From Halorarum halobium (GTDB lineage: Archaea; Halobacteriota; Halobacteria; Halobacteriales; Haloferacaceae), in assembly GCF_032116555.1 (NCBI RefSeq), contig NZ_CP134949.1, forward strand, positions 186,001 to 250,000: 64,000 nucleotides of DNA. Direction: 5' to 3'. Each line of letters begins with the position of its first letter. The first letter of the stretch is position 1. The translations under genes and the position numbers were made by a program. Below, in pieces: positions 4,332 to 62,566 of this stretch. Below the pieces are notes generated by a model. That model was given only the letters and a program-made list of their open reading frames with translations, searched no databases and was not told the DNA's origin.

Positions 4332-4741
4332 CCGCCGGCGCGAACGGCCGGCGAACCGCGGTCCGAACGATCCGTGGCCACGCCTCTCGGTCCGACCTGC
4401 ACCACCGGAACCCGACCGATCATCCTCGACCCGCGGGCGTCGCCTGGGGTGCGGTGGCACGGCGCGCGCGAGCCAAACCCGGCCGACCTGTCTGGTCACC
4501 TGATAATACGTTCGTCAAGTTCGTTCGCAACGTTTGCCGGCCTCCCGCGGATATTACGTCCTTATACAAGGGGTATCGCGTTTTATTTCGGACGGTCATC
4601 TGGATACACACCCATGAATTTGTGAATTTCAACGTGTGGGTTTATGGTTGTCCGAATCAGCCCATCTGGCGTGATGCCCGACACGGATCACAGTAAAATC
4701 GGTGAATCGATGAACGAACGTTGCGTGCTGGTGGTGGGAGC

Positions 4742-53599: not shown

Positions 53600-54019
53600 A
53601 TGAGCGAGGACTGCATCTTCTGTGCGATCATCGCGGGGGAGATCACCGGACGAACCGTCGCCGAGACCGACGACGCGCTCGCGTTCCTCGACGCGAACCC
53701 GCTCTCGCCGGGCCACACGCTCGTGGTCCCGAAGGCCCACCACACCAGAGTCGCGGACATGTCCGCCGCCGAGTCGCGCGCGGTGTTCGATCTCGTCCAC
53801 GAGCTCGCCCCGCGCATCGAGGAAGCCGTGGACGCCGACGCTCACACCATCGCCGTCAACGACGGCCCCGAGGCCGGCCAGGAGGTGCCCCACGCACACG
53901 TCCACGTCATCCCCCGGTTCGCGGACGACGACGGCGGCCCGATCCACGCCGTCGCGGGCAGCCCCCTGGAGCTCTCGGACGAGGAACTCGACGAGATTGC
54001 CGAATCAATTTCGACATAG
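53600..54019 (+). CDS. hit: HIT family hydrolase
   Basis: DCIFC, GHTLVVPK, GQEVPHAHVHVIPR. Confidence 0.94.
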   Translation: MSEDCIFCAIIAGEITGRTVAETDDALAFLDANPLSPGHTLVVPKAHHTRVADMSAAESRAVFDLVHELAPRIEEAVDADAHTIAVNDGPEAGQEVPHAHVHVIPRFADDDGGPIHAVAGSPLELSDEELDEIAESIST

Positions 54020-54061
54020 CACAACCGAAATTTTATCCCCGGAAGCGCGGTCAGAAGGAGT

Positions 54062-54829
54062 ATGACCCGAACCCTGGCGCTCGTCGGCGTCGCCGGCGGC
54101 GTCGGCACCACCAGAACCCTGGTCGAGAGCGCGGCGACGCTCGCCCGCGACGGACGCGACGTCGTGGTTCTCGATGCCGCCTACGCGACGCAGGGGCTCT
54201 CGGAGTTCCTCGGCGGGCGCATCGACCCCGACCTCACCGCGCTCTGTCTCTCGCCGGACCGACCGCTCGCGGACGGGCTCTACGACCTCGAACTCGGCCC
54301 CGGCGTCGACGACGCGCCGGGCCGCGTGGCGCTCGCGCCGGCGTTCGCCCCGTTCGAGCGCCTCGCCCGCGCGAAGACCACCGACGCCGCCGAGGCGTTC
54401 GAGGACCGCGTCGCCGAGGCCGCGACGGCGTTCGACCACGTGCTCGTCGACACGCCGCCGGTCGGCGCAAACCAGCACCTCGCTGCCGTGAACGCGGTCG
54501 ACCGGGTGGTGCTCGTCGCGCCCGGAACAGAACACGGCGCCGACGCCCGCCGCCGGATGGTGGATCGGCTCCGCGACGTCGGCACGACCCCCGCGATGAC
54601 GGTCGCCGTCGGCGGACCGCTTCCCGCCGCGTCCGCGACCGTTCCGGACCTCCCCGGAACGCCGGCGGAGGGCGTCCAGTGTCTCGATGACGACGCCCTG
54701 GGCGGCCGGATGATGACTGCCGTCGAGTCGCTGCTCGACACGTCGCTCGCCGTCGAGTTCGAGGACGACGGTGCGCTCGGGAAAGTGAAGGCGGGCGTCG
54801 AGGAGCTTCGGGGTCGCGCCGAGGACTGA
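54062..54829 (+). CDS. ParA/MinD-like protein with a degenerate Walker A
   Basis: VGVAGGVGTT, VVVLD, VLVDTPP. Confidence 0.8.
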   Translation: MTRTLALVGVAGGVGTTRTLVESAATLARDGRDVVVLDAAYATQGLSEFLGGRIDPDLTALCLSPDRPLADGLYDLELGPGVDDAPGRVALAPAFAPFERLARAKTTDAAEAFEDRVAEAATAFDHVLVDTPPVGANQHLAAVNAVDRVVLVAPGTEHGADARRRMVDRLRDVGTTPAMTVAVGGPLPAASATVPDLPGTPAEGVQCLDDDALGGRMMTAVESLLDTSLAVEFEDDGALGKVKAGVEELRGRAED

Positions 54830-54909
54830 GAACGGCACGGAACCCGGAACCGTCTCCGTCGTTCGAACCCCGGGCCTACCGTCGGACCGCTTACAGTGGA
54901 GGGCGGGCG

Positions 54910-55425
54910 TCAGCGGAGGTCCGCGGCGTCCGTCATCGTCTCCGCGAGCGCGTCGCGCTTGGCAACGCTCGCGTTGTCGGTCGGCGACCGCGCCGATTCG
55001 GCGGCCTCGATCAGTTCCGGGACGGAGTCGTGGCTCTCGACGTAGGCCGCCAGCGCGAAGTCGGCCTCGTCGCCGCCGGTCAGTTCGAGCGCGTCCGTGC
55101 GTGAGACGTCGCCGCCGAGCCAGTCGCGGACGATCCGTCGTCCGGTCGGCCCGAGCGGCGACACGCCCGAAACGCCACAGCGGTGGAGCGCCTTCGCCGC
55201 GGTCATCGGCGCGACGCCGGCCTCGCGGGCGGACTCGCCGACGCTCACGCCGCGACCGTACTCGTCGAGCACCGTCGCGGCCGCGGCTGCCGTACAGGGA
55301 AGGCGCTCCGCGGCGGCAGCAAGCCGCTCGCGCAGGTCGCCGCCGGTGTCGTCGACGACCCTGACCCCCTGGTCCCGCTGCTCGGCGGTCACCTCGATGC
55401 CGGCGGCGATGTCCGAGAGCGCCAT
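54910..55425 (-). CDS. Conserved hypothetical protein with an HTH-like segment
   Basis: GVSVGESAREAGVAPMTAAKALHRCG; acidic, typical codons. Confidence 0.75.
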   Translation of the reverse strand: MALSDIAAGIEVTAEQRDQGVRVVDDTGGDLRERLAAAAERLPCTAAAAATVLDEYGRGVSVGESAREAGVAPMTAAKALHRCGVSGVSPLGPTGRRIVRDWLGGDVSRTDALELTGGDEADFALAAYVESHDSVPELIEAAESARSPTDNASVAKRDALAETMTDAADLR

Positions 55426-55594
55426 GCGAACCGGTTACTCCCCATTCGGTATAAATTCATCCATCGGACGAAAGAATTGATCGTCGCATCCGCGACGAAC
55501 GAACCGATTATCGGTACGTTCGTCCGGTCGGATCGGCTCGATTTCCCGCCGTTCTCCCCTCATTAAAGTAACCGATCGGGCGCAACGTTCGAGT

Positions 55595-56452
55595 ATGAGC
55601 ACTGCAACAGTTGCGTGCCCCGAGTGCGAGGGACGACTGCGCGCGGACGGCGACGAGACGGTCTGTGGCGAGTGCGGGCTGGTCGTCGACGCCGATCGGC
55701 TCGACCGCGGCCCCGAGTGGCGGAGCTTCTCGGACGACGAGACCGACCCGCGACGGACCGGCGCGCCGCTGACCCGCTCGCGCCACGACCGCGGACTCTC
55801 GACCGAGATCGGCCACACGCGCGTCACGGGACGCAAGCGGAAACAGTGGGCCCGGATGCGCCGCCAGCACACCCGGGCGCGCATCTCGACCAAGCGGGAG
55901 CGGAACCAGGTGTACGGCTTCACCGAGATCCGCCGGCTGACGAGCGCGCAGTCGCTCGGCGACCGCATCCGTGACCAAGCCTGCTCGCTGTTCCGGTCCG
56001 CACAGTCGGAGAACCTCCTCCGCGGTCGCTCCATCGAGGGGTTTGCCGCCGCGGCGGTGTACGCGGCCTGCCGCGTCGCCGGCATCTCCCGGACCCGCGG
56101 CGAACTGCTCGCGGACGCGAAGGCCGACCGGGGAGAGCTCGACGCGGCCTATGACGCGCTCAACCGCGACCTGGGGCTCCCGGTCGGTCCCATCGACCCC
56201 GCCGAGTACCTCCCCCGGTTCGCGTCGGAACTCGACCTCGGCGCCGGGGTCGAGCGCGACGCCAGGGGGTACCTCGACCGGGCGCGAGAGCGCGGCATCG
56301 TCAACGGCCGCAACCCCAGCGGCGTCGCCGCGGCGTGTCTGTACGCGGCCGCCCGCGACCGGGGACTCGAGTGCACGCAGGCCGCCGCGGCCGACGTCGC
56401 GGGCGTGACGCCGGTGACGCTGCGGAACAGCTACGGCGACCTGCAGGAGTGA
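55595..56452 (+). CDS. tfb: Transcription initiation factor IIB paralog
   Basis: CPEC...CGEC zinc ribbon, DRGPEWRSF, RTGAP, two cyclin repeats (GRSIE, GRNPSG). Confidence 0.93.
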   Translation: MSTATVACPECEGRLRADGDETVCGECGLVVDADRLDRGPEWRSFSDDETDPRRTGAPLTRSRHDRGLSTEIGHTRVTGRKRKQWARMRRQHTRARISTKRERNQVYGFTEIRRLTSAQSLGDRIRDQACSLFRSAQSENLLRGRSIEGFAAAAVYAACRVAGISRTRGELLADAKADRGELDAAYDALNRDLGLPVGPIDPAEYLPRFASELDLGAGVERDARGYLDRARERGIVNGRNPSGVAAACLYAAARDRGLECTQAAAADVAGVTPVTLRNSYGDLQE

Positions 56453-57090
56453 ACGTCGGCCGCGAGCCCCTCGATCGCTCGTGCGGCCGCGGAGTCCGGA
56501 GCCGCTTCGACGACGGGTGACTCCGTCTCGACCGACCGTCCGAGCCGCGGATCGGCCGGGACCGACACGGCAGGTGCGCCCAGCGCGCGCTCGACGGCTC
56601 CCGTCGGCACCGAGTCGAGCACGCGATTGAGCGCCACCGCAACTACGCCCGCGTCGAGTTCCCGGGCGAGTTCACGAGCGCTGACGGCGTCAGCGAGCGC
56701 CCACGCTCGGGGGGACGCGACGACGAGACAGGCGTCCGCGACCGCGAGCGGGACCCCGGCGTCGGCACGGAGCCCCGCCGGACAGTCGAGGATCACGTCG
56801 CGGCCGGCCCCGATCGAACCGACGGCCTCCTCGAGCCGCCCGACGTCGGCCGCGCGCGCCCCCGCCAGCGACCGGCCGCAGGGAAGCAGATCGACCGGCC
56901 CGGAACGGACCGCCTCCCGTGGGGCCGCACGCCCGGCGAGCACGTCGTGGAGGTCCGGGCCGCGGCCCCGCGGAAGGTCCGCCATTCCGAGGTCGGCGTC
57001 GACGACGACGGCGTCGAGCGCCGCACCGAGGTTGTACGCCAGCGTCGACTTTCCGACGCCGCCCTTCCCGCCCGTCACGGCCAGAATCAC
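56431..57090 (-). CDS. minD: MinD/ParA family ATPase
   Basis: GGKGGVGKST, VDADLGMADL, ILDCPAG. Confidence 0.88.
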   Translation of the reverse strand: MILAVTGGKGGVGKSTLAYNLGAALDAVVVDADLGMADLPRGRGPDLHDVLAGRAAPREAVRSGPVDLLPCGRSLAGARAADVGRLEEAVGSIGAGRDVILDCPAGLRADAGVPLAVADACLVVASPRAWALADAVSARELARELDAGVVAVALNRVLDSVPTGAVERALGAPAVSVPADPRLGRSVETESPVVEAAPDSAAARAIEGLAADVHSCRSP

Positions 57091-57860
57091 GCCAGTCTCC
57101 CGAGCGCGTCGACCGGCACGTCCGTGGCTTCCGCGCGGCCGGCCAGCGTCTCCGTTCGCTCTCCGACCGACCGAAGCGCCTCGGCGTCGGCTTCGACCGC
57201 CAGGGGGAGCGCCTTCGGATCACGGTCACCGTCCGCGAGCGCGTCGGTCGCGTCGGCCACGGAGGCGTCGGTGAGCCGCTCCGCGAGTTCGATGCGCGTC
57301 GCGGCGTCCTCGAGCCAGTCGAGGACCGAATCCGGGATGGCGGAGGGTGGGAGGTCTTCGGCGACCGTCCGTTCGGTCTCCGTCGTCTTCCGTTCGGGTA
57401 CCGTCGCTTCCAGGTCTGGCACCGTCGCATCCGGTTCGGACGCGCCCGACTCGTGCCCGTCCCTGGGTGGGACGACGTCGAGTGCGGTCCCGTCGGGGAC
57501 GGCGTCCCTGGGCGGCCGAAACGCGCCGAGTTCCCGGCGCGCCCGGGTCGCCACCGCCTCTCGCGACCCGTCCGGGTCACCGACGTCCGCGAGTTTCGCC
57601 GTCGGCACCGTGGCCTCGCGCTCCCCCAGCGGACACGCGTATCCCAGCGAGATCGACTCGCCGGCGTCCAGAACCGCCGTCACGCCGTCCTCATCCCAGC
57701 CCGTCTCCGGAACCCCGTTCCGGCGTGGCGGCAGCACCGGACCGTCCAGCCGGTTCACGATCCGGACCTGCCGGGCTACTGGCGTGGGGTTTCGGACGTC
57801 GAGGCTGACGAGCGCGACGCCGGCAGCAACCGTCGCGTCGGCGCTGAGGGAGACGGACAT
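57087..57860 (-). CDS. Conserved haloarchaeal hypothetical protein
   Basis: NRLDGPVLPPRRNGVPETGWD; stop overlaps the minD start. Confidence 0.78.
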   Translation of the reverse strand: MSVSLSADATVAAGVALVSLDVRNPTPVARQVRIVNRLDGPVLPPRRNGVPETGWDEDGVTAVLDAGESISLGYACPLGEREATVPTAKLADVGDPDGSREAVATRARRELGAFRPPRDAVPDGTALDVVPPRDGHESGASEPDATVPDLEATVPERKTTETERTVAEDLPPSAIPDSVLDWLEDAATRIELAERLTDASVADATDALADGDRDPKALPLAVEADAEALRSVGERTETLAGRAEATDVPVDALGRLA

Positions 57861-57885
57861 GGGGTCAGTGGTCCCGTCATCGGGG

Positions 57886-58701
57886 TTAAATCTGGACGAC
57901 GGGGGCTCCGAGAACGTCCCTCGCAGCGGCCGGATCGTCGAACCGGTCGACCGCGAGCACCACGGGCTCGTCGCGGTCGGCGACGGCGACCGCGGCCAGA
58001 TGGGCCGTGATCGCGTCCCCGGCGAACGCCGAGGGGTCGGTTCCGGGATCGGCGTCGCCGGGGACTCGCTCCAGTGCCGCGGTGAACGGCTCGTACACGC
58101 GCTCGGCGAGCGCTCGCCGCGCCTCACGCCGACGGTTCGCCAGTTCGTCGCGGAGGCGGAGCGTCTCTCGACGGTCGGTCCGTCGGCGCTGCGCCCGATC
58201 GCCGGCTGCTTCGAGCGCCTGCTCGGCGGCGACCCGGTCGGTCTCGGCCGCCGCCAGCTCGCGGGCCGCACGCTCGTGTTCCTCCCCGGCGGCCGTCACG
58301 TCCCCGCCGTCCTCCCGAACGGCCTGCAGCCGCCCGCGGGCGGTGGCGACGCGCTCGCGGAGGCGCTCGACGTCCGCCGTCGCGTCGGCGGCACGCTCGC
58401 GCGCCGCGGCCAGCCCCGTTCGGTCGGACCGCTCGTCGGCCGATGGGTCCCCCGAGGCCGCGCCGGCCAGTCGCCGTCGGAGGGTGGCGATCCTGTCCGC
58501 CTGGGGGGCCTCGTGTCCCCTGGTCCGGGCGGCGCTGGCGAGCAGTTCATGGAGCGACGGGGGCGAGTCGGCGACGAGCGCCAGCGGGTCGTCGCCATCG
58601 AGGCCCAGCGCGGAGCAAATTCGCCCGGGGTTCAGCTCCCCGCGATCGGAGAGGTCGACCGCGCGGCCGCGATAGGTTCGACCCTCGAGCCGGAAGTTCA
58701 C
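57886..58701 (-). CDS. Coiled-coil hypothetical protein
   Basis: Long R/E/A-rich heptad region; coupled to the upstream gene. Confidence 0.72.
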   Translation of the reverse strand: MNFRLEGRTYRGRAVDLSDRGELNPGRICSALGLDGDDPLALVADSPPSLHELLASAARTRGHEAPQADRIATLRRRLAGAASGDPSADERSDRTGLAAARERAADATADVERLRERVATARGRLQAVREDGGDVTAAGEEHERAARELAAAETDRVAAEQALEAAGDRAQRRRTDRRETLRLRDELANRRREARRALAERVYEPFTAALERVPGDADPGTDPSAFAGDAITAHLAAVAVADRDEPVVLAVDRFDDPAAARDVLGAPVVQI

Positions 58702-59036
58702 AGCTCAGTCCCTTCCATCGCGTCCGGATCCGGGTGGTCGGTTCCGGCCGCGAACTTCGGATACGGCGTGCTGGGTCGGTCGCGGTCCTCGTAGTCGACG
58801 GCGGCCTCCCGAATCGCGGGCCTGACGGCGGCGAACTCGTTGAACGTGTCGGTGCGTTCGACCCGAACGTCGGCACCGTGTTTCGCCCTGAGTCGGCACG
58901 CGAGGAACGCGCCCAGCTCCGTCTCGGCCAGCAGCGCGACGCGGCCGTACCGCTCGCGGACCGCCGCCTCGTTGGCTCGACAGCAGTTCCGCAGGGTCGT
59001 CCGCGCCCCGGCGGAGTAGGCGACGACGAGCAACAT
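58698..59036 (-). CDS. Conserved hypothetical protein
   Basis: MLLVVAYS..AR..LRN.C, TPYPKFAAGT. Confidence 0.78.
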   Translation of the reverse strand: MLLVVAYSAGARTTLRNCCRANEAAVRERYGRVALLAETELGAFLACRLRAKHGADVRVERTDTFNEFAAVRPAIREAAVDYEDRDRPSTPYPKFAAGTDHPDPDAMEGTEL

Positions 59037-59117
59037 GAGTACGGGTGCTTCGCTATCGAAAATAAAGCTATCGTACGGGGAAGCGGCGTCGGGACGGCGC
59101 GGGGTTCGGGAGCGCCC

Positions 59118-59750
59118 CTACCGCATGCGGACGGTATGACCGTCCTCGTCGAGTTCGACCACGGCGTCGAACAGCGACGTGATCGTCTCGACGGTCTGGT
59201 CGTCGTGTGCGGTGGGGTCCATGTGGAAGTGTGCGAACGCGCCGACGGCCGCGAACCGACCGGTGAGCACGTGGAGGAACTCGTAGGCGGTCTCCAGTTC
59301 GACGTACTGCAACAGCGCTGTGAGCGAGTCGAAGCAGACGACGGTGTCGCCGTCGTCGTCCTCCCAGCCCCGCAGGTACTCCGTGATGCGGATGCCCAGC
59401 CCCGTGAGGTCGTTGGGACTCGTGATGGTGTCGGCGCGCGTCTCCAGTCCGCCGTCGGGGCTGCCACCCGAACCGGAGGCGGCCGCGGCCGACCGCGCGG
59501 CGTCGTCGACGCTGATGACTCCGACGTTACGCGGCGTCGACTCGGAGCGGGACCGGAACCGCCGAACCTGTTTGTCCGGCGATTTCGTGTACGAGATCCA
59601 CAGCGCGTTCCCGTCGGCGGTCCGCTCCGGGTCGAGGAGGTCCACACAGCGGTCGCCTTCCTGCTCCGAGAACGACGGGGCGAGGAGCAGCACCGTCGCT
59701 GCGTCCCCAAGCTGTGCCCGCACGTCCCGCTCGAGTTCGTGTACAGTCAC
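59118..59750 (-). CDS. RecA/KaiC-like-fold protein lacking Walker A
   Basis: SPNDLTGLGI, VVCFDSLTALLQY, FLHVLTGR, SLFDAVVE. Confidence 0.78.
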   Translation of the reverse strand: MTVHELERDVRAQLGDAATVLLLAPSFSEQEGDRCVDLLDPERTADGNALWISYTKSPDKQVRRFRSRSESTPRNVGVISVDDAARSAAAASGSGGSPDGGLETRADTITSPNDLTGLGIRITEYLRGWEDDDGDTVVCFDSLTALLQYVELETAYEFLHVLTGRFAAVGAFAHFHMDPTAHDDQTVETITSLFDAVVELDEDGHTVRMR

Positions 59751-59814
59751 CTTCGGAACCCCACTATCCTGTCACTCAGGTTGGAGGGGATCGGATAAAG
59801 GGCTTTCCCTGCGC

Positions 59815-60096
59815 TCATCGGATCGGCGTCACCTCGACCACGTCGACGTCGCGGTCCGCGAGCGCGGCCACGCGCTCGCGTGCCTGGGCCGCCGAGTCGG
59901 CGACGACGACGGTCTCCTCGTCCGGTCCGTCACCGTGGACGGTGCGGTACGCGCGCGTCCCTGACACCTCGAACTCCGTGGCGAACGTGCGGAGCACGGC
60001 GTTCACGCGCCGCTCCGTCTCGGTGAGGTCGGCCTCGCCCTCCTCGAACTCCCTGAGCGCGTTCTCGACGTTCCGGAGGGCCGAGATTCGGTCCAT
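59815..60096 (-). CDS. Small conserved hypothetical protein coupled to mcm
   Basis: MDRISALRNVENALREFEEGE; TGATG overlap with the mcm stop. Confidence 0.8.
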   Translation of the reverse strand: MDRISALRNVENALREFEEGEADLTETERRVNAVLRTFATEFEVSGTRAYRTVHGDGPDEETVVVADSAAQARERVAALADRDVDVVEVTPIR

Positions 60097-62201
60097 CAGA
60101 CTACACGAAGGTGGTCTTGGTCAGGGGAATAGACTTCACCGGATTCACGGAACTTCTCAATCTCTCTCTCAGCCTTCTCTCGGTCAATTCCGATTTCTTC
60201 GGCAGTTTCAAGGACTTCATCCCATGGTGCGCCAACATCATATTCATCCTGCATATCTCTGATAAGCTGCTTGATATTCTTTTTTCGCTCACGTTGATTC
60301 TTGCTAGTACCCGTCTCGACCACGTCGGCGTCGAACTGTCCCGTCTCGGGGTCGACGCCGATGTCCTGCAGGCACGAGCGGACGATCTCGATGACGCGTT
60401 CGGCGTCCTTGGGTTCGACCGTGTCCGAGAGCCGGACGCGCGCGCTCGCCTCCGAGAGCCGGACGAGCGCCTCCAGCTTCCGGGCGGTGACAGGCACCGG
60501 GGCGTCCTCGTCGGCCCCTTTCGCACGGAGGTCGACGTAGAAGTCGCGGATGGCCTCCTTCGCCTCGTCGGTCATCGTCGGGTAGCAGTTCCGCTTCGAG
60601 TACGCAATGTACTTCCGGAGCAGGTCCGCCTCGATGACCGGCGCGACCTCCTCGGTGACGTCAGCGACCTCCTCGGAGCTGTACTCCGAGTTCGTCGTCT
60701 TCTCGCGCTGGGTGTTCAACTCGCCCGCGTAGTTGGTGGTGATGATGTGTTCCGCGAGCTTCGCGTCGTGGTCCGGGTCCGGCTGGTCGGTGACGGTGAA
60801 GATGAGGTCGAACCGCGAGATGAGCGCGGGTTCGAGGTCGATCTGCTCGCCGATGGGCTCGTACTGGTCGAACCGGCCGTACTTCGGGTTCGCCGCGCCG
60901 AGCAGCGAACAGCGGCTCTTCAGGGTGGCGTTGATGCCGGCCTTGGAGACGGAGATCTGCTGCTGTTCGAGTCCCTCGTGCATCGCGGAGCGGTCCTCCG
61001 ATCTCATTTTATCTAGCTCGTCGACCGCCGCGATGCCCTTGTCCGCGAGCACGAGCGCGCCGGCCTCCAGGGTCCACTGCTGGCCGTCGCCGAAGTCGTC
61101 GCGGACCGCCGCGGCCGTCAGCCCGGCCGAGGAGGAACCCTTGCCGGAGGTGTACACCGACCGCGGCGCGATGTGGCGGATGTACGAGAGCATCTGCGAC
61201 TTCCCAGTCCCGGGGTCGCCGATCAGGAGCATGTGGAGGTCGCCGCGGATGCGCGAGCCGTCCGGCAGGTGCTTGGTGACGCCCGAGAACAGCTGGAGGA
61301 TCATCGCGAGCTTCTCCTGTTCGTAGCCGTAGATGGACGGCGCGATGGAGCCGACCATGTCCTCGTAGATGTTCTCGCGTTTTGAGAGCTCGTAGATCTC
61401 CTCCTTGTCCTCGTCGGTGATGTCCATGTCCTCGAACTCCTCGTCCTCGACGACGACCGAGACGCCGTCCATGTAGAGGTCGAAGATGTTCGTCTTCTCC
61501 TGGCCGGAAGTGACCTGCTCGATGTGGAGCACGCCCGCGACGGTGACGTGATCGCCCGGCGTCACCTTCCCGCAGACGTCGTCCTCCAGGTTCACGTCGA
61601 TGCTCTGGGGCGTCTCGCCGCCGCGCAGCCCCTCGGGCGACTCCTGGACACGGAGCTTCTGGGAGTCGATGAACTCGGACTGGTCGTGGTTCACCCGAAA
61701 CGGTCCCTGGCGCTCACAGCCCTGGCACTCGTGGGGCTCCTGGAACCCCGAGTCGGCCTGTGGGATGTACGTCATCGTCCCGCAGCGCTGGCACTCGAAG
61801 GCGGCCTCGGTCACCTTCGGGCGCACGTCGGTCGCCTTCCGGACGATGCCCTGCACGGCGACCATCGAGCCGATGTGGTCGTCCTGGACCCGGATGTTCC
61901 GGATGTCGATGGTGCGCTCGCGCGGGAGCCCCCGTACCCGGACGTGGGCCTGCCCGAGCGAGATGTCGACCGGTAGGTCGTAGGTGCGGAGCGCCTCCTC
62001 GGCGACCCGCCCCATGTCCTCTGGGTGCTGGAGGAATCGCTCGGCCAGGTCCGGGTCGAACGTGTAGAGGTCGTCGTACTCGACGTGGAGCGAGCGTTGC
62101 TCCTTGGGGTACCGCTGGGCGAGCGCGGCGATCTCGTCGCCGTAGTACGTGCGGTAGAAACTCAGGAACTGGTCGAGTTCCTGGCGCTCCATCTGACTCA
62201 T
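60096..62201 (-). CDS. mcm: Replicative DNA helicase MCM (intein-free)
   Basis: CQRC...CQGC zinc motif, GDPGTGKS, VDELDKM, AANP, SRFD. Confidence 0.97.
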   Translation of the reverse strand: MSQMERQELDQFLSFYRTYYGDEIAALAQRYPKEQRSLHVEYDDLYTFDPDLAERFLQHPEDMGRVAEEALRTYDLPVDISLGQAHVRVRGLPRERTIDIRNIRVQDDHIGSMVAVQGIVRKATDVRPKVTEAAFECQRCGTMTYIPQADSGFQEPHECQGCERQGPFRVNHDQSEFIDSQKLRVQESPEGLRGGETPQSIDVNLEDDVCGKVTPGDHVTVAGVLHIEQVTSGQEKTNIFDLYMDGVSVVVEDEEFEDMDITDEDKEEIYELSKRENIYEDMVGSIAPSIYGYEQEKLAMILQLFSGVTKHLPDGSRIRGDLHMLLIGDPGTGKSQMLSYIRHIAPRSVYTSGKGSSSAGLTAAAVRDDFGDGQQWTLEAGALVLADKGIAAVDELDKMRSEDRSAMHEGLEQQQISVSKAGINATLKSRCSLLGAANPKYGRFDQYEPIGEQIDLEPALISRFDLIFTVTDQPDPDHDAKLAEHIITTNYAGELNTQREKTTNSEYSSEEVADVTEEVAPVIEADLLRKYIAYSKRNCYPTMTDEAKEAIRDFYVDLRAKGADEDAPVPVTARKLEALVRLSEASARVRLSDTVEPKDAERVIEIVRSCLQDIGVDPETGQFDADVVETGTSKNQRERKKNIKQLIRDMQDEYDVGAPWDEVLETAEEIGIDREKAEREIEKFRESGEVYSPDQDHLRVV

Positions 62202-62493: not shown

Positions 62494-62566
62494 TGGGACC
62501 GCCCAGATTTGAACTGGGGTCAATGGCACCCAAGGCCACAAGTATACCAGGCTAACCCACGGTCCC
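62494..62566 (-). tRNA. tRNA-Pro(UGG)
   Basis: GGGACCG acceptor, GTGGC-CTTGGGT-GCCAT anticodon arm, GTTCAAATC. Confidence 0.95.

Follow-up and report, generated by a model that had tools for sequence, protein, structure and literature searches.

A foreign-looking winged-helix tail in a haloarchaeal mcm gene and the mobile element that may have left it

The replicative helicase gene mcm is essential, and it serves as a vertically inherited core marker. In the 64,000-nucleotide stretch of DNA analysed here (the window), the last 71 codons of this gene differ sharply in composition from the codons that precede them and from the gene that follows. This raises the question of how an essential gene came to end in a domain that does not look its own, and whether mobile DNA put it there.

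The break in mcm and its two ends

The gene is the sole MCM of a 3-contig genome (68% GC, 99.9% complete, 0.28% contamination), and it looks like a chromosomal (core) archaeal MCM in every respect: there is no second copy, the domain set is complete, the synteny is conserved and the core tree follows the host. Pfam assigns MCM_N, OB, P-loop and lid domains, followed by a linker ending in ...FDADVVET. We placed the break by the maximum-likelihood change point in GC3, which gave a sharp step between codon 630 (Thr) and codon 631 (Gly), with a log-likelihood gain of 55.6; GC3 is 593/630 (0.94) before it and 30/71 (0.42) after it. The largest step in 1000 draws of a simulated null was 9.8. A scan of ORF 3' ends across the genome ranked the mcm drop first of 2342 ORFs, with 39.6 ahead of 19.3 in second and 14.1 in third place. 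Low GC at this position is not a general trait of the relatives, which would have spoken against the reading given in the first-pass annotation of this DNA: the low-GC3 tail is absent from all 15 intein-free relatives, in which the largest gain was 11.8 and lay elsewhere in the gene.

That annotation had counted 96 G+C in the 210 nt from 60101 to 60310. The count is exact, and no other 210-nt segment of the 64 kb (mean 0.69) is lower. The second-lowest stretch of the window (4491-4710, 0.48) is intergenic, before the ammonium transporter-PII gene, and is ordinary promoter DNA. Also as first described, the frame, the C-terminal domain and the TGATG coupling are intact, and high GC returns in the next gene, DUF7854 (Table 1). 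The tail comprises the end of the linker and the MCM winged helix (WH; Pfam PF21120), which scored 28.4 bits against a cut-off of 26.1 with the last 76 aa and 22 bits, under the cut-off, in the whole protein. Conserved WH residues are retained. A single-sequence model of the tail has three helices (pLDDT 68.6), for which Foldseek returned no match at E <= 0.001. Nor did a Pfam scan of mcm and its surroundings turn up a Hint or a LAGLIDADG domain, such as an intein or homing endonuclease would bring.

Table 1. Features of the mcm locus (window coordinates) and of related proteins from other loci
Feature	Position or identifier	Strand	Description
mcm	62201-60096	-	701 aa, intact, without intein
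Native mcm core, codons 1-630	60312..62201	-	Pfam domains; GC3 0.94; DNA identity 94%/93% to congeners
Apparently foreign tail, codons 631-701 plus stop	60096..60311	-	MCM winged-helix domain, GC3 0.42, 71 aa
Left junction	60302..60319	-	In congeners a 5-bp inverted repeat with 8-bp spacer, TCGAG-N8-CTCGA
Right junction, TGATG stop/start overlap	60088..60100	-	Foreign codons up to the stop; host-like from the DUF7854 start
DUF7854 gene, native	59815..60096	-	PF25252; GC3 0.93; translationally coupled to mcm
Element proteins with C-terminal MCM WH	L032:9667-10167, L034:9683-10174, L378:2683-3216		About 160-180 aa
Nuclease-WH fusions	P0037, P0045, P0072, P0076, P0093, P0097, P0121, P0125, P0128, P0047		PADLOC matches the nuclease part only

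Identity to the congeners extends to base 60310, which places the break within the Gly codon and not after ...VVETG, where the drop had originally been placed; the low-GC tail itself is as reported. At this left junction the congeners carry an inverted repeat, and the break falls within its 8-bp spacer; this mcm keeps the left arm and 7/8 spacer bases and has lost the right arm. An inverted repeat around a short spacer is the shape of a tyrosine-recombinase core. The dyad, intact in 52/142 loci, is a candidate recombination core, spotted post hoc, and spacers of this kind cover about 5% of congener mcm. The ETG block is among the best conserved DNA ahead of the variable tail, so that homology alone could fix the break there. 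At the right end, only TGA is common to this tail and those of the congeners, which would leave a precise deletion little homology to use. No flanking direct repeat was found around the tail.

The DUF7854 protein is 68-71% identical to those of congeners versus 51-67% to others, and its gene is the first in a block between mcm and a HIT gene (window 53600-60096) that includes DUF7854-7857, MinD-like and TFB genes. This block, a variable module adjoining mcm, is missing beside mcm in at least seven genomes (G154, G401, G251, G342, G336, G393, G371), where lower-GC DNA is found instead. On the other side of mcm, a tRNA-Pro gene (62494-62566, minus strand) lies about 290 bp upstream on the same strand; tRNA genes are usual integration targets, and no island was seen beside this one.

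Relatives, candidate donors and other tail swaps

Comparison with two congeners separated the two parts of the gene. Core DNA identity is 1777/1890 and 1753/1890 (93-94%), and tail identity is 117/213 and 124/212 (55-58%), with the congeners' tails matching each other at 195/219 (89%); the tail of this mcm is absent from both. Of 122 MCMs, 97 have a neighbour whose core is at least 92% identical, and their median tail identity is 96%; this MCM is the lowest, at 51%. The WH evolves faster than the core across the order.

In the core tree (33 rows) this MCM nests in its genus clade (support 100, starred), inside a 10-row clade (99, starred); the nearest named relatives outside the genus are Halobaculum and Halobonum. 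The other nine rows of that clade have 73-aa tails, all with a 2-residue insertion, and they group together in the tail tree (95/99, starred), whereas this 71-aa tail is without the insertion and falls outside the group, on a terminal branch of 0.43 versus 0.023 in the core tree. Separate trees for core and tail had been proposed as a check, and they gave a divided answer: the tail does stand apart on a long branch, but its own placement is a long-branch join, and AU tests on 71-73 columns failed to reject tail monophyly with the congeners (p 0.096, 0.249, 0.278). Composition, the step in DNA identity, the lost lineage insertion and a second case at the same codon (below) together support the domain-precise WH replacement that the first-pass annotation had proposed, and, judged from its sequence, the tail appears both foreign and derived.

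We then looked for a donor. The best identity was 66% in 400 genomes (chromosomal tails, 64-66%), 56% in 20 plasmid records, 47% in six phage records and 63% among the 150 representatives listed, the closest matches being chromosomal and not mobile. Homologous-protein searches with the tail returned itself alone (1/50 and 1/118 candidates), and scans of viral and metagenome data with the tail sequence gave no match. Motif scans of viral contigs found three real MCMs in 40 loci, and further scans gave two chance hits and four loci lacking the junction. The junction pattern occurred in two metagenome loci, in 3/256 genomes of the family and in 7/232 of a second family, with no new case among them; a match repeating the tail of the second case (L109) was left out of the count. 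Tails with GC3 <= 0.55 make up 4/166 chromosomal-type loci (this one, L109 and two low-GC3 genes) and 9/33 non-chromosomal-type loci, one of the nine being a mis-binned chromosomal gene; suitable low-GC WH donors appear to be common on mobile DNA. Among the sampled chromosomal mcm genes, only Haloquadratum tails are equally low in GC3 (0.40), but they are of a different sequence type. On two Halorussus plasmids (L037, L379) there are mcm paralogues whose lid and linker are near-chromosomal and whose tail is low in GC3, each with a convergent integrase; the L037 paralogue is split by a frameshift.

Five of 168 distinct MCM-tail loci surpass the null maximum of 9.8: this mcm (42.6), L109, G154, G401 and one Halorussus plasmid paralogue. 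L109 is a MAG with a Haloarcula-like core, and it is the only other chromosomal mcm among the 168 loci to switch at the codon where this one does, its GC3 passing from 188/207 to 39/71 and its tail being followed by TGATG-DUF7854, as here. The left break is at the same codon in both whole-tail cases among the 168 loci, a codon that also lies in a conserved block. In the related genomes G154 and G401, only the last 12-14 mcm codons are low in GC3, low-GC DNA comes next, and DUF7854 was not found. At the protein level, the metagenomic P0172 has three differences from P0168 in its first 640 residues and 22 in its last 60. P0214, metagenomic as well and possibly an assembly chimera, joins a core 100% identical over its last 200 aa to the Halorubrum-type P0208 with a Halobacterium-type tail (70%). 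The chromosomal tails of Halobium (P0252) and Natronocalculus (P0188) fall, at starred nodes, into other groups than their cores do; these tails and that of P0182, which stand apart from their own cores or are unlike the type of their genus, may be older swaps. L006 and L007 were rejected as swaps, their low GC3 spanning the whole gene. The mcm tail swap is real, rare and recurrent, with its mechanism half resolved.

Elements at mcm and the origin of the tail

In genome G414 a 36%-GC island, spread over two contigs (C18 and C23; L234, L235), separates the mcm stop from the DUF7854 start exactly where they meet. It carries restriction-type genes, a GmrSD-type gene, an IS and a tyrosine-integrase-like gene, and at its DUF7854-proximal end lie the integrase and a gene for a small regulator, where no MCM tail is present. 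The mcm stop/DUF7854 start is a real insertion site. The first-pass annotation had proposed to look in relatives for islands that start at the ETGTSK codons; the G414 island lies at the stop, and no intact element at the ETG codons was present in any locus examined. Relatives of the G414 integrase occur in 28/301 genomes, bordering protein-coding genes, and none of 29 loci has an MCM tail within 1.5 kb of the integrase. In three loci of this integrase family an AhpD-like gene ends in 10-11 codons of low GC3. One of them, L385 (G024:C5:168715-176067), is an intact element of 7352 bp and 47% GC, which lies in the AhpD-like gene with a 14-bp core repeated at its two ends and the host end that it displaced on its far side; L336 and L337 have the same target in two more genomes. 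Integration at the mcm stop is seen in one other genome, and restoration of a target with the element's own end at other haloarchaeal genes. Elements of the same family in L327, L332 and L333 (G083, G144, G073) cut short a creatininase-like gene of the host, all three at the same codon; there a complete low-GC3 copy of the gene lies beside the integrase, so that the whole gene, not an end, is replaced.

The explanation we favour, with a probability of about 0.5, is that the tail is the scar of a gene-restoring mobile element. An element would have recombined site-specifically into mcm at the ...VVET/G codons, and its own 3' end, a low-GC WH of element rather than chromosomal descent, would have restored the essential gene in frame. 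The element would later have been deleted along with the displaced host tail, leaving its 71 codons alone before DUF7854. What favours this reading is the dyad, the insertion site seen in G414, an integrase family that restores its targets and the low-GC WH donors on mobile DNA. The mcm locus has one hallmark of a gene-restoring integrative element, a target gene restored by a foreign end, and lacks two others, a displaced fragment (direct repeat) at a far end and an adjoining integrase with cargo: searches of this genome (tblastn/blastn, motif counts) found no displaced host tail, nor did they find the congener-type junction motif or a relative of the G414 integrase, and no integrase or cargo lies beside the tail. 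Because the native DUF7854 block follows directly, the tail is at most a scar and not a member of a standing island. The first-pass annotation had offered a scar as one reading, and the support for it is good, if circumstantial; the lack of an intact element, a displaced tail, a related integrase and a donor above 66% is a serious objection. Two kinds of candidate for a displaced tail were set aside: P0115, which does not differ from the C-terminus of a full-length MCM in its own species and most probably stems from a frameshifted gene call, and other short WH proteins, mostly on contigs under 2 kb. Whatever the source of the tail, the genome is 99.9% complete and has no other mcm, so the hybrid helicase must be functional.

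The strongest rival is direct allele exchange, on which no element ever resided at this site. Two crossovers would have brought in the tail, either from the syntenic mcm-DUF7854 locus of a low-GC haloarchaeon outside the sample or from an mcm paralogue on a plasmid. They would be anchored in two conserved stretches, the DADVVETG codons and the start of DUF7854, and this is the simpler course, as the exact TGATG join needs no deletion step. The best tail matches are chromosomal, chromosomal-type tails do sit on other cores (P0214, P0172, and Halobium and Natronocalculus at starred nodes), and the Halorussus plasmid paralogues share the linker and have low-GC3 tails. However, P0214 and P0172 carry the metagenomic provisos given above, Haloquadratum provides the only chromosomal tails of comparable GC3 and these are of another type, and a full-length homologous donor need not put the left crossover on the same codon twice. 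We consider this exchange a serious but rather unlikely account.

An element could also have come in by two steps with the ends reversed, an element with an MCM-like tail at its attachment site integrating at the DUF7854 start, and homologous deletion between two DADVVETG copies then removing the host tail and the cargo. Both precise ends would be accounted for, at a start codon that does receive insertions, and plasmid mcm paralogues do adjoin convergent integrase genes. Nevertheless, the G414 element presents a regulator and an integrase to DUF7854 rather than an MCM tail, no DUF7854 match was found in plasmids, and the plasmid integrase as carrier of the tail was rejected, as it is not generally linked to MCM tails (2/2 other close relatives are without one within 1.5 kb). 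This sequence of events seems improbable to us.

An assembly chimera with contaminant DNA is very improbable. The tail is present in one assembly only (cluster 1 member, 1 contig), the best sequencing runs contain 0.11 of the words sought with no cover at 60176-60272, and three contigs of relatives depart from this sequence at 60313 with a host-type tail; against this, the assembly has three contigs with 0.28% contamination, frame and coupling are kept at both joins, the 16-nt junction words are unique in the genome, and an unrelated genome (L109) has the same left break. That the native tail itself hypermutated locally or came under relaxed selection, as the AU tests and the fast-evolving WH would permit, is scarcely credible given the step-like boundary, codons ending in both A and T, a loss of the 2-residue insertion that yields the common haloarchaeal length, the conserved WH residues and 51% tail identity where comparable MCMs have a median of 96%.

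Initiator contact and known systems

The replaced segment is of the same domain type (PF21120) as the C-terminal winged helix of Sulfolobus islandicus MCM, which, according to the available part of PMC5333045, binds the ATPase domain of Cdc6-1 and is needed at oriC1. There the Orc1/Cdc6 contact was shown in a crenarchaeon; in this haloarchaeon it is a predicted docking only. The complex prediction of the host main Orc1 AAA+ domain with this WH scored 0.59 versus 0.00 for the best control (100% agreement between runs, partner pLDDT 82 or higher). Among reference pairs, 116/157 solved and 2/215 mismatched ones attained the mark, and 18/157 solved pairs and both mismatches did so at <=0.60; because family alignments were used, the prediction speaks for family likeness only. 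It hints that the foreign WH may still dock on the host Orc1. Outside one variable insert, the host main Orc1 differs from those of congeners at three positions, so there is no sign of co-change. The first-pass annotation had suggested that an exchanged initiator-binding surface might help to evade viral or plasmid initiators; this would be a hypothetical benefit, to which the many non-replicative proteins with an MCM-like WH at their end, described next, lend indirect support alone.

WH domains of this type also occur on other proteins. Several nucleases (Mrr-MCM-WH, HSDR_N-WH and HNH-WH fusions, several with a degenerate MCM) end in a host-like MCM winged helix, and these candidate defence proteins might load at Orc1-bound origins of invaders. 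Some of these WHs track the tail type of their host, among them that of L032, which groups with G002 (support 92), and those of L265 and L267. Of the element proteins in Table 1, those of L034 and L378 adjoin the element's own cdc6; L032, L034 and L378 are possible initiator-binding mimics. A low-GC island of about 100 kb (G000:C1:687000-786000) has its own Orc1/Cdc6 at about 726 kb, and no MCM-like gene was found inside. More speculatively, the haloarchaeal MCM WH could be an exchangeable module, with mobile and defence genes carrying host-like copies to engage initiators, elements targeting mcm and hosts repeatedly fixing foreign WHs; we think this doubtful as a whole. If true, an exchangeable WH would change which initiators and mimics load or block the helicase.

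The locus offers a natural, viable swap of a whole initiator-contact domain that is about half identical, and with it a test of Orc1-MCM pairing specificity, which is relevant in haloarchaea with their many Orc1/Cdc6 copies. On the favoured reading of an element scar, mobile DNA can alter the coding sequence of a core replication gene for good and leave nothing else behind. Of wider interest are the numerous element and nuclease genes whose products end in a host-like MCM winged helix, for which our search of open papers found no description; nor did it find one of elements targeting haloarchaeal mcm or of WH swaps, and the available part of PMC7911831 says nothing of mcm as a target.

For tRNA islands it has been described how a tyrosine-integrase island interrupts its target gene and makes it whole again with a fragment that it carries (the Islander principle; PMC4383910, as far as its available part goes). 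As in such islands, at mcm a foreign end restores the target in frame and the break falls in a short dyad, and haloarchaeal examples in protein genes exist. Unlike them, the target here is the essential replicative helicase, the exchanged part amounts to an entire domain of 71 aa that shares only 51% identity with the native type, and the site retains no island, integrase or displaced fragment.

Mosaic alleles that arise by interspecies recombination, such as those of the penicillin-binding proteins, provide a second comparison. They too have a divergent block within a native essential gene. In contrast to such mosaics, the block in mcm ends at a domain boundary and a stop codon, its left end recurs, and 55-58% identity is very low for ordinary homologous recombination.

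Finally, archaeal elements carry extra ('shell') MCM copies beside the vertically inherited core gene (available parts of PMC3914693 and PMC5333045; Krupovic et al. 2010 as cited there). Haloarchaeal plasmids, viruses and islands likewise carry MCM copies and WH derivatives able to donate such a tail. While extra MCM copies on elements were already known, we found no description of a foreign domain inside the core gene, and this is where the present case differs: the core mcm itself has taken in a piece of a foreign copy.
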